From a virus (lineage: Duplodnaviria; Heunggongvirae; Uroviricota; Caudoviricetes): a stretch of DNA of 64,000 nt. The notes under the pieces were generated by a model. That model saw nothing but the letters and a program-made list of their open reading frames with translations, searched no databases and was not told the origin of the DNA. Shown here piece by piece: positions 686 through 4,443 of this stretch (the stretch's first letter is position 1; each line of letters starts with the position of its first letter). Both the position numbers and the translations under genes were made by a program. The stretch is from the IMG/VR virus record IMGVR_UViG_3300017565_000017, positions 128,779-192,778 of that record; one strand, 5' to 3'.

Positions 686-761
686 TGGAGGCCTAGGTGG
701 GACTCGAACCCACGACCCGGGAATTTAGAGTTCCCTGCTCTGCCAACTGAGCTACTAGGCC
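686..761 (-). tRNA. amber suppressor tRNA, anticodon CUA
   Basis: 76-nt canonical cloverleaf: GGCCTAG TA GCTC AGTTGGCA GAGC A GGGAA CT-CTA-AA TTCCC GGGTC GTGGG TTCGAGT CCCAC CTAGGCC T CCA; all four stems pair; CCA encoded. Confidence 0.95.
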
Positions 762-1072
762 AAATGACCGACGTAAATGTGCCGGTGGTTAGGGTCATAA
801 TACATTTCACTGAACCGCGAATCGAGCTGAGCCCTCAAGGGCGAACCACATTTCGCAGTACATAGCAGATAGACACCAGTTTCGGATTGCTCACCGGGTT
901 CAAGTTGGCGACCACGCTTTACACGGAGGCGACGTACCTCCGAGTTAGAATCGTAGGACGCGCACAAATCTGCTACTAGCCGTGAAAACGTGAGGCGGAT
1001 CAACTTATCGCCCCTCACAACACCCCAAACTCGGTTGAATTTCGGGCGCTTGAATTCGCAAACCTAAGACAT
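755..1072 (-). CDS. candidate amber-readthrough ORF (ATG-TCT-TAG-then 102 sense codons) ending inside the suppressor tRNA
   Basis: SD AGGAG (1081-1085), 8-nt spacer, ATG at 1072, TAG at 1066-1064, then open in frame to TAG TAG at 757-752. Confidence 0.5.
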
Positions 1073-1115
1073 GGTGTAATCTCCTAATGTAGCGGCCAGG
1101 GTAGGCCGTGGGGTA

Positions 1116-1144
1116 ATTATAGCCCTGTACGGGGGCCAGGGCAA
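1116..1144 (-). promoter_or_regulatory. sigma70-type promoter for amber ORF/tRNA
   Basis: TTGCCC-17 nt-TATAAT. Confidence 0.75.
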
Positions 1145-2209: not shown

Positions 2210-2428
2210 CTAGCGCCGCAAGCTCTGGACAATACGGTCCCAATCCTCACGGGGGAACCTGGAATGGAATTCATCGTCCAAACGCTTCCATTCCTTGTCC
2301 ACTTTGGTCTGGAGTTCCTTACGGTCCTTGGGGCTTTTGGCTTTGTCCAATTCCTCAAGGAGTTCGTAGAAGGCGCAACCCTGGCCGATAGTCGTACCCT
2401 TATACTGTCTGGATTTCTTGCCGGACAT
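2210..2428 (-). CDS. hypothetical protein (start re-assigned to MSGKKS)
   Basis: GAGGA SD 5 nt before ATG at 2428; ends TAG. Confidence 0.55.
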   Translation of the reverse strand: MSGKKSRQYKGTTIGQGCAFYELLEELDKAKSPKDRKELQTKVDKEWKRLDDEFHSRFPREDWDRIVQSLRR

Positions 2429-3008
2429 AACCATCCTCACGATTGCGAACGTTCTCGTGCATACGGGGCTTGCGATCACGTAGCATCGCAATAACCTCAT
2501 CGTGGTTCCACGGCAACATCAAGTTGTCAGGGCGGTTGTCCACACCAACATCGAACATGCGCCATTCGGGGAACCGAATCACGTGGCCGTGGCTGTGACC
2601 ATGTAGGTGGTAAGCCCCGTAGTGAGCGCCATCCCACTCGTAGATGGGAAAGTGGCAGTACACCATGTGGTCCCGACCGATCGAATTGTTGACAATAAGC
2701 GGAATGTGTACGTTCTCGAACAGTTCGTACAGGTAACGGTTCCGCTTAATGACCTTATCGTGATTGCCCGGAACGAGCTCGATCTTGCCTTGGAGGCGCT
2801 TGACCACCGCCTCAATTTGTTGGGGATTACCGAAGGAGAAGTCGCCAAGGAACCAGATAGTGTCCTCGGGCTTTACCACGGAATTCCAGGCTTCGATCAG
2901 GAGCTCGCCCATTTCCTCCACAGTTTCGCCCCGGCGCGTCGCCCGAGCGAACTTGAGGATGTTGTTGTGGTCAAAGTGTGTATCTGACGTGTACCACGTA
3001 TTAGCCAT
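2400..3008 (-). CDS. calcineurin-like metallophosphoesterase
   Basis: Motifs SDTHFDH, LGDF, GNHD, HFP, HGHSHG. Confidence 0.9.
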   Translation of the reverse strand: MANTWYTSDTHFDHNNILKFARATRRGETVEEMGELLIEAWNSVVKPEDTIWFLGDFSFGNPQQIEAVVKRLQGKIELVPGNHDKVIKRNRYLYELFENVHIPLIVNNSIGRDHMVYCHFPIYEWDGAHYGAYHLHGHSHGHVIRFPEWRMFDVGVDNRPDNLMLPWNHDEVIAMLRDRKPRMHENVRNREDGYVRQEIQTV

Positions 3009-4443
3009 CGTTATAACCTAATTGTGAATAGACTTGATCCACAGACTGCCTCAGGACCCACACGCGCTGCTCACTGTCCGTTAAGGACGTGAGCGCAGCA
3101 TTTAGCGGAGTACCTTTAGCCATCATTTGGTAGAGAGGCATCAGGTCTTCGCCATAGGCGTTGGAAAGCGCAGCCGTATCACATATGATTCTATTTACGT
3201 TTTGGGGTTCGGTACGACCAATCCGCTTAATAAGCGCATAGTAGCGAGACTTCATCTTGATTAGACGTCCGGTTTCCGGATCCTGGACCACAAAACCCTC
3301 GTGACGGCAGCGCTTCAGTTCCTGACGGAGATCACCCACCAGAGCCTTGCTCGTTCCCAACAGCTCCGCATTCTGTCGGTGAGGACGAAGTGCTATAGGG
3401 GTTGCCCCACTAGCTTCAACTACAATGTGTGGGTCCGTAGGGTCGCAAATCTCAAAGAGCCACGTACATAGACCTTCCGATTTGGCTTGGATACCCTCCA
3501 GATGCTCTTTCGCCATATCTACAAAGCGCGAATCCATAGAGCCTGTGGTAGAGAACAGAGGACCGTACTTAGGATGATCCGTATACGCGGCCATGAATCC
3601 GTTGACCTTGCGAGCGTAAGTAACGCACTGGTCATCCCGGAAGCGCACTACGGGCAAAATACCCAGCGCTTCCCCCTCGGCTGCCAGCTTCGTAAACGGA
3701 TGCACTACAATGTTCCAGTTCTCGTCCACCACAAGACCACGCATTTCGATAGCCGCGTAATCCCAGAGGTTGCGGTACATGCAATCGTGTGTGTACTTCA
3801 GGATGCGCAGGCCCGGATAGTTCTTAACTTGACGCACACTGACAAGCATACGATTGGTGTCCACCCACGCTTTGAGCTGGGCCGGGTCGTAAACATTGAA
3901 TTCGGGACCGGCTACAACAGACCGCACCTTTTCAAAGCCAATGTCGTCTGGAACCCACTGTACGTCTGCGTAATAACGGCGCAGGTCCGAAACATTGATC
4001 TTGGAATGCTGTTCGCGCACAGAGTCTTCGGGGACAGCTTTGTCCCCTCGGCCTACCTGACGAGCGATACACTCGTCGAGCGGCGTATTGACGACAATCG
4101 CCCTCAGCTCGTACCCATACTGATACTTGGCGTTCACATACTTCATGCGGCGCGCGGGCGTGAGGTTGGTGGAGTCTGCGATAATGCCGACACCGGAACG
4201 CACCAGATTGGCTAAGAATGTCTTGGCGTACTGGCCGTACTCGCGGTCATTCTCGGAGCAGTATCGGAACGCGTCCCGTGCGTCCGGAGTGCGCCCTGTG
4301 CGCTTCACATAGAACTCAGCGCGGAGGTCATCATGCGAATACACCTTGTAATCCGGGTGCTGCTCCAGCAGCTTCTGGCGAATCGTTGACTTACCAGAAC
4401 CGGCTACCCCGATCAATACAATGATCTCTTTACTCATGGTCAA
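3001..4443 (-). CDS. polynucleotide kinase (AAA_33 P-loop) fused to Rnl1-type RNA ligase
   Basis: N-terminal GVAGSGKST, D-x-x-R and DSTNL; C-terminal nucleotidyltransferase motifs KVNG (I), LFEI (III), EGFVV (IV), KMK (V). Confidence 0.85.
   Translation of the reverse strand: MTMSKEIIVLIGVAGSGKSTIRQKLLEQHPDYKVYSHDDLRAEFYVKRTGRTPDARDAFRYCSENDREYGQYAKTFLANLVRSGVGIIADSTNLTPARRMKYVNAKYQYGYELRAIVVNTPLDECIARQVGRGDKAVPEDSVREQHSKINVSDLRRYYADVQWVPDDIGFEKVRSVVAGPEFNVYDPAQLKAWVDTNRMLVSVRQVKNYPGLRILKYTHDCMYRNLWDYAAIEMRGLVVDENWNIVVHPFTKLAAEGEALGILPVVRFRDDQCVTYARKVNGFMAAYTDHPKYGPLFSTTGSMDSRFVDMAKEHLEGIQAKSEGLCTWLFEICDPTDPHIVVEASGATPIALRPHRQNAELLGTSKALVGDLRQELKRCRHEGFVVQDPETGRLIKMKSRYYALIKRIGRTEPQNVNRIICDTAALSNAYGEDLMPLYQMMAKGTPLNAALTSLTDSEQRVWVLRQSVDQVYSQLGYNDG

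Follow-up and report, generated by a model that had tools for sequence, protein, structure and literature searches.

Organization of the Locus

The stretch examined here (the window) comprises 64,000 nucleotides (nt), bases 128779–192778 of a 242,859-bp jumbo-phage contig with 53% G+C (IMG/VR record IMGVR_UViG_3300017565_000017). On its minus strand lies a small module made up of a promoter-like site, a two-codon leader that ends at an amber codon, a protein-coding body that continues in the same frame, and an amber-suppressor transfer RNA (tRNA) gene into which that frame runs. A Shine-Dalgarno (SD) sequence, AGGAG (1085–1081), is found 8 nt 5′ of an ATG (1072–1070), which together with TCT (1069–1067) forms the leader, Met-Ser (1072–1067). 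The third codon is an in-frame amber TAG (1066–1064) followed by G; we refer to this codon as the gate. Past the gate, the frame stays open for 102 sense codons (1063–758), which homology, predicted fold, and substitution pattern place in a phage protein family. It is closed by a tandem TAG TAG (757–752), and a back-up TAA (727–725), which could be reached only by read-through of both TAGs and eight extra codons, overlaps the anticodon of the tRNA.

The tRNA gene (761–686) was identified by ARAGORN and Rfam (RF00005, 68.7 bits, cut-off 29). It is a canonical cloverleaf with the anticodon CUA (728–726) in a 7-nt loop (CUCUAAA) with U33, a U73, and an encoded CCA. The last sense codon of the open reading frame (ORF) and both terminal TAGs are positions 2–10 of the tRNA, the TAGs alone being positions 5–10. 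To our knowledge, U73 combined with a CUA anticodon fits no known E. coli identity set. The contig has 25 tRNA genes, 24 of which form a minus-strand array interspersed with small ORFs, and tRNA(CUA) is the most upstream member of this array. A search of phage records with the DNA of the region returned no match at near identity, and a search for distant matches recovered the tRNA alone. An earlier interpretation made without database searches (the sequence-only reading) had proposed the promoter, the SD sequence, ATG TCT TAG, the 102 codons, the TAG TAG and TAA, and the run of the frame into a suppressor tRNA; each of these was recovered base for base.

The putative promoter (TTGCCC-17-TATAAT, 1144–1116) resembles sigma-70 sites at 10 of 12 positions. 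It is the sole such site within positions 1–2600, where shuffled sequences yield 1.6, so the match is not significant alone. Promoter-like sites occur at the equivalent place in two related loci, L015 (TTGCCC-17-TATACT) and L016 (TTGTAA-17-TAATAT), and this recurrence is better evidence for a promoter than the scan of a single genome.

The Interrupted Frame Encodes a Conserved Phage Protein

When the 102 residues were used as a tblastn query, homologues were found in Klebsiella Stephanstirmvirinae phages (45% identity, E 3e-19), with further matches in Myxococcus phage Mx1, one Synechococcus phage, and 63 Acinetobacter T4-like phages. When 1.84 billion cluster representatives were searched with a profile, 234 family members were recovered at E ≤ 0.001. 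No member was found in bacterial genomes by one scan with a single peptide pattern, and the family appears from its known sequences to be confined to phages. For comparison of gene organization, loci were collected from IMG/VR, metagenomes, assemblies, and phage records and were read in frame; an alignment of 42 sequences was too diverse to be used for locus searching.

The ORF is a real gene under purifying selection. Against the closest relative (L015, 83% identity), the ratio of nonsynonymous to synonymous substitution rates (dN/dS) is 0.126 over the whole ORF and 0.131 over the first 16 codons past the gate, which lie upstream of the GTG at which an ORF caller begins the gene. The second codon after the gate encodes an invariant Cys (an x-Cys motif). 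Both observations uphold the proposal that the start is the ATG upstream of the amber codon and not the GTG. In the window, there is no ATG, GTG, or TTG for 15 codons after the gate, and the codon that follows it is GTT; an early in-frame stop after an SD-ATG is thus joined to conserved coding sequence that has no start of its own. Public annotation either omits the gene (KP2025) or begins it 20–35 residues late.

An AlphaFold2 model built from a 12-sequence alignment has a predicted local distance difference test score (pLDDT) of 90.4 and consists of two β-β-α-β halves, with the first ten residues less well defined. The window protein had no match in Pfam at E ≤ 0.1 and none with a function in PHROGs. 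It lacks membership in the profiles of PTH2 (PF01981) and of the release-factor domain (PF00472) and represents a different family. Foldseek searches of the PDB and AFDB clusters gave no match usable for function; a wide structure comparison with VIA-align reached a best Z of 4.3, covering half a domain only. The ESM atlas, queried by shape and by features, and a PDB sequence profile likewise yielded no match to a function, and BFVD returned just unnamed members of the family. The protein is thus predicted with confidence to adopt a fold for which there is no known structural relative. Locus L108 (3001–3105) has a decayed copy, of which the last ~35 residues of the family protein are left; it immediately follows a tRNA(UCC) within an array of tRNA genes that has no suppressor.

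The sequence-only reading had named as its fallback a two-codon minigene followed by a chance ORF, and a decaying pseudogene is a related possibility. What speaks for a chance ORF is that the arrangement SD-start-stop-ORF is as common with TGA as with TAG in this genome. However, homologues in unrelated phage groups, 234 clusters, a dN/dS of 0.13, and a pLDDT of 90 refute the fallback, and we attach next to no probability to either form of this explanation.

An Early Block Is Maintained across Lineages

The gate is a recurrent feature of the family. In 37 of 42 lineages, an SD-ATG is followed by 0–10 codons and then by a block to translation. The tree set of 39 sequences, to which three further lineages (L110, L112, and L115) were added to give 42, includes 26 members with TAG in the leader, one with an internal TAG (L010), five with TGA, five with a +1 break, and two that are uninterrupted. 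Beyond the tree set, L115 is TAG-gated, and L110, L112, and also L113/L114 are uninterrupted. TAA was never seen as a gate in the lineages examined. The sequence-only reading had called for a comparison of relatives by SD-ATG-stop, frame, and dN/dS; most of these loci keep the stop, as TAG or TGA, and the frame, and the dN/dS against L015 indicates purifying selection.

The details of the leader vary. Klebsiella phages have AGGAGA...ATG TCA TAG, and there too the gene ends inside a tRNA(CUA). The cyanophage gate consists of ATG, five codons, and TAG, and the T4-like gate is ATG AAA CAT TAG. Most of the 28 gated loci that were tabulated have an SD-like purine run 5′ of the leader ATG, and the last leader residue of the homologues is most often Ser, His, or Thr. 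A purine follows the stop in 28 of 28 loci, partly because the next codon usually encodes Ile or Val.

Several leader regions have additional features. Directly after the cyanophage tRNA(CUA) (L004, 900–950), there is a second mini-leader, ATG GGC GGA GAC GCA TCC TAG ATT AAT. It is closely similar to the gate of the real gene 550 nt downstream, only five codons follow it, and it may act as a decoy or be what is left of a copy. In L009 (100–172) and L094 (2930–2965), a fragment resembling a T-arm and 3′ acceptor (GGTTCGAGTCC...GGGGGC) directly precedes the leader ATG; ARAGORN called no tRNA in it, even with relaxed settings. In L007 (2480–2500), the family gene starts GTGA, so that the GTG overlaps an in-frame TGA.

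The Gate Matches the Anticodon of the Neighboring tRNA

The type of stop tracks the anticodon of the tRNA nearby. In the flanks that were fetched, a TAG gate is accompanied by a tRNA(CUA) within 0–2.2 kb in 12 lineages: the window, the Klebsiella type, L065, L066, L069, L081, the cyanophage, the T4-likes, L078, L088, L092, and L099. The L078 tRNA has an 8-nt loop containing CUA. TGA gates are paired with tRNA(UCA). The two overlap in L016 and L017/18, as in the window; the tRNA is 90 nt downstream in L009 and 2.7 kb away in L056, and in L007 it is located elsewhere in the genome, 62 kb off. Mismatched pairs (TAG with UCA or TGA with CUA) numbered zero among the loci examined.

The window protein and those of L015, L016, and L017 form one clade with 100/100 support. 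The L016 and L017 proteins are 66–70% identical to that of the window and have the same overlapping layout, and they carry TGA and UCA; stop and anticodon have therefore switched jointly within a short evolutionary distance. From its well-supported branches, the tree requires the TGA type to have arisen at least three times. The bodies of the tRNAs vary widely among lineages, and the match between gate and anticodon is what stays constant. As an alternative to a regulatory circuit, the sequence-only reading had suggested an amber-conditional protein of about 105 amino acids. The conserved gene, its conserved gate, and the agreement of stop type with neighboring anticodon support that alternative.

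Other tRNAs with unusual anticodon loops lie close to family genes. Those at L034 (1498–1575) and L078 (527–597), near TAG-gated members, have 8-nt loops (CUUAUAAU and AUUCUAAC, respectively), and an odd tRNA near the L007 gene (3692–3766) has the loop CUAAUCA.

A +1 Break Replaces the Stop in One Branch

Five loci (Mx1 [L003], L071, L072, L073, and L077) have no in-frame stop. They have an SD followed by ATG or GTG, 0–2 codons, and the sequence CAU-U, after which the conserved body continues from x-Cys in the +1 frame. Followed to its end in the four loci other than L071, the zero frame meets a stop after a few codons. Each locus has an odd tRNA within 0.7 kb, called by ARAGORN as Ile(AAU). 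Its loop is GUAAUGA in six of six copies, covering all five loci, with the closing base pair unpaired in four of the six. The AAUG within this loop is complementary to CAUU. Only in this Mx1-like branch did we find a frame break whose four bases could pair with part of the loop of an adjacent tRNA, and the window has no CAU-U break. Judged by these complementarities, the class fits a tRNA-dependent +1 event, possibly by four-base reading.

The CAU-U site recurs in a second gene of Mx1. The annotated 86-amino-acid "peptidyl-tRNA hydrolase" (L003, 1115–1450; OR576727.2) is the C-terminal part of a PTH2 domain whose full frame has no start of its own. Entry into that frame would be from the mini-ORF ATG AAC CAT TAC CAT TGC TGA, which contains two CAU-U sites, each a possible place for the +1 shift; the same site is present in the family gene 300 nt downstream.

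Ungated Members and Gene Neighbors

The family genes of L101, L112, and L113/114 have ordinary starts, and each has a tRNA(CUA) 0.3–0.9 kb upstream. L110 also starts normally, but no tRNA lies close to it. Since three ungated members lie beside CUA tRNAs, the link between protein and suppressor goes beyond the gate, and the two are probably functionally linked.

In the T4-likes, the gene that follows the family member encodes a 78-amino-acid release-factor domain (PF00472, E 9e-12; L005, 1790–2026, Acinetobacter phage KARL-1). A two-piece (permuted) transfer-messenger RNA (tmRNA) was detected by ARAGORN directly downstream in the Synechococcus phage (L004, 1937–2355) and in a related IMG/VR contig (L013, 2842–3275). 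Termination and ribosome rescue are the theme of this neighborhood.

In the window, the next gene (674–156) starts 11 nt past the 3′ end of the tRNA and, judging from this spacing, would be co-transcribed with the module. It encodes 172 amino acids with a weak, NikA-like ribbon-helix-helix match that falls under the cut-off (PF21983, 25.4 bits). Upstream of the module (2400–4443) are a kinase-RNA-ligase fusion and a metallophosphoesterase. L015 and L017 have the same order (AAA_33, Metallophos, small ORFs, gated gene, and tRNA), with a weak RNA_lig_T4_1 match in L015 only.

The Phage Uses the Standard Code

A phage that encodes tRNA(CUA) could be globally recoded, with TAG as a sense codon (code 15) and the gated gene merely one of many that contain it. 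The genome as a whole argues strongly against this. Under the standard code, non-overlapping ORFs of at least 80 amino acids cover 89% of it, and 304 long ORFs end with TAA (150), TGA (91), or TAG (63). ORFs gain no more length from read-through of TAG than from that of TAA or TGA. The pattern expected of code 15, in which TAG is frequent within genes and unused as a terminator, is absent. The phage genome uses the standard code and is not recoded; the probability that we would leave to global recoding is very small.

A loose scan of the genome for SD-start-(0–8 codons)-stop-long ORF gave 11 hits with TAG, 13 with TGA, and five with TAA. Within this genome alone, the pattern is thus at chance level, and its significance comes from conservation in homologues. 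The same scan, with follow-up of the candidates, revealed no convincing second TAG-gated gene, a further point against global recoding. One candidate, at genome position 117794, falls in tRNA-like sequence. The phage's own PTH2 gene (genome 119601–120011) was also considered and rejected, as it has a normal ATG and no mini-leader.

Proposed Mechanism and Alternatives

The best-supported reading of these comparisons, and one that we consider likely, is that translation of a conserved protein is gated by a suppressor tRNA. Ribosomes would load at AGGAG-ATG and make Met-Ser, and release factor 1 would then end synthesis at the UAG, two residues in, except when an amino acid is inserted there by the phage tRNA(CUA). 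With tRNA(CUA), a 105-residue protein would be made, its folded part beginning with the invariant Cys just past the gate, and protein output would follow suppressor activity. Because the gate lies within an unstructured N-terminal leader, it should make no difference which residue is inserted. We infer that read-through happens and is needed. A different use of the codon, in which UAG would serve as the initiation codon for an initiator-like tRNA(CUA), was ruled out: in the window tRNA, G1-C72 is paired and there is no GGG/CCC anticodon stem, so it is not initiator-like, and an SD-ATG always precedes the stop.

Several observations weigh against gating by a suppressor. The complete 381-kb genome G001 (locus L008) has the gate ATG TAG and no CUA among its 16 detected tRNAs; Infernal and a relaxed, intron-aware ARAGORN search over its tRNA region also found none. 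(At L041 2051–2138, G001 also carries a tRNA-like gene of 88 nt, in which the variable arm is long and the anticodon loop, CGACCA, has 6 nt.) Several other TAG-gated loci have no visible suppressor, though these are on short contigs. The closest relative, L015, has the TAG gate, and in place of the window suppressor it has a tRNA (3294–3371) with the loop CGCCUAA, called CCU (Arg) by ARAGORN, with G33 and with CUA one base out of register. This gene is an aberrant suppressor or, in a contig of low coverage, a product of misassembly. The codon directly after the stop is GTG in L016 and L017 and ATG in L115, where reinitiation is conceivable; more broadly, it is AUN or GUG in about half of the loci (14/28: ATT, ATC, ATA, ATG, or GTG). 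In L015–L017, moreover, the fourth codon past the gate is an in-frame ATG or TTG, and a product started there could lack just three residues. Finally, no match in Pfam, the PDB, or the atlas gives the function of the protein.

Much of this would be accommodated by start-stop coupling, in which the 1–10-codon leader is a mini-ORF for loading, the ribosome reinitiates at or near the next codon, and the tRNA is not needed. Its adjacency would then merely reflect that both elements live in tRNA clusters. The AUN and GUG codons after the stop are what such coupling would use, and the gate of G001 would function without a suppressor. However, the next codon in the window is GTT, with no canonical start for 15 codons, and other loci have ACT, AGT, AAC, AAA, GCT, or GTT in this position. 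Nor does reinitiation predict the exceptionless pairing of TAG with CUA and TGA with UCA, the absence of TAA, the internal TAG of L010, or a +1 CAU-U class with its own tRNA. We judge reinitiation improbable and keep it under consideration because of G001, L015, the short contigs that lack a suppressor, and the GTG and ATG codons after the stop.

A second alternative places the regulation in the act of translation. The sequence-only reading had proposed that translation of the tRNA's own precursor gives feedback control. Ribosomes that pass the amber codon would enter the 5′ end of the tRNA and alter its folding or its processing by ribonuclease P (RNase P), providing feedback in cis on tRNA supply. 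The coordinates in the window are compatible with such a device. Ribosomes finishing the ORF would sit on the acceptor and D-arm strand, a cut by RNase P at the 5′ end of the tRNA would sever the stop codons from the ORF and leave a messenger RNA that has none, and a single transcript could serve as message or as tRNA precursor, never as both. The overlap of ORF and tRNA is, however, limited to the window clade (the window and L016–L018) and the clade of the Klebsiella phages. At least nine further lineages lack it, their tRNA being upstream or 7 nt to 2.7 kb away; in T4-likes, cyanophages, and others, the distance is 30 nt to 2.7 kb, and the tRNA is usually upstream. As the overlap is missing from most lineages, precursor translation cannot serve as a general feedback mechanism. 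Moreover, a pure cis device has no need of a strongly conserved, confidently folding protein, and the terminal TAG is the near-universal U8-A9-G10 of the tRNA, which is still TAG in relatives that use opal. We therefore regard feedback in cis as quite unlikely.

Returning to suppressor-gated translation, the ungated members beside CUA tRNAs, the neighbor with a release-factor domain, and the gated PTH2 neighbor suggest that the protein acts with or on non-standard decoding. One could extend this to a sensor-effector loop like that of the release factor 2 gene, prfB. Synthesis of the protein would report how well the suppressor or frameshift tRNA competes with normal termination or decoding, and the protein would then act on that process, possibly through the tRNA, release factors, or ribosomes that have moved past stops. 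This extension is the role that we favor for the protein, on the strength of its association with suppressor tRNAs, ungated members included, but it is tentative and on balance doubtful. If it is correct, the loop would keep read-through at a set point in a phage whose own genes still depend on TAG as a terminator, and, in the window, the use of one transcript as message and its maturation into tRNA would additionally exclude each other.

These findings would give the orphan suppressor tRNAs of many large standard-code phages a concrete and testable job in the form of a dedicated client gene. They also bear on annotation, as the gene is missed or called 20–35 residues too short in public records. 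The CAU-U branch may be a case of natural four-base decoding, and the protein, with its confidently predicted fold and no known relative, would be a good target for structural and functional work.

Comparison with Known Systems

The sequence-only reading knew of no description of this arrangement, and full-text literature searches agree: none turned up an account of a standard-code phage in which a suppressor tRNA has its own gated client gene. A study of Klebsiella phages leaves the role of such suppressor tRNAs open (PMC8386662). Suppressor tRNAs are known from recoded phages with code 15 or code 4, including crAss-like, Lak, Jade, and Agate phages (bioRxiv 10.1101/2021.08.26.457843; PMC7886860; PMC9523058). 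There, as we propose here, a stop-reading phage tRNA is needed for genes with an in-frame stop, and a role in timing or conditional expression has been proposed. In contrast to those phages, the one described here keeps to the standard code, with TAG as the terminator of about a fifth of the genes and a lock on just one. The lock is in the first codons, ahead of the fold, and the client adjoins or overlaps the tRNA. Furthermore, the lock on this single protein family differs among phages and may be UAG, UGA, or a +1 break.

Nonsense and frameshift suppressors and quadruplet decoders are known from the laboratory as sufD, SufB2, and engineered quadruplet tRNAs (qtRNAs) (bioRxiv 10.1101/2020.12.31.424971; PMC9094753; PMC8481270). 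These laboratory suppressors resemble the phage tRNAs in that a CUA or UCA anticodon, or a loop capable of four-base pairing, rescues a blocked frame. They were selected or designed, whereas the tRNAs here are natural and each is paired with a conserved client gene. Classic frameshift suppressors have an 8-nt anticodon loop; in contrast, the CAU-U-class tRNAs are predicted to have 7-nt loops with a closing pair that is often unpaired.

Minigenes of the lambda bar type consist of an SD-ATG, one codon, and a stop, with no conserved in-frame coding after the stop. The leader in the window is likewise a two-codon ORF with a strong SD sequence and would behave as such a minigene in the absence of the suppressor, but here conserved coding sequence follows the stop.

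The prfB gene is autoregulated by a +1 frameshift at an in-frame UGA, and its product, release factor 2, itself reads that stop. In both systems, an early in-frame stop would sense termination against alternative decoding. The prfB frameshift, which has been reviewed (PMC5009743), uses no special tRNA, whereas the alternative event proposed here needs a dedicated phage tRNA. The same design has been built artificially. In synthetic amber-suppressor logic gates (PMC11669171), output needs both a promoter and a suppressor tRNA, acting through an early amber codon. Those gates are engineered, and the module described here is apparently their natural counterpart.
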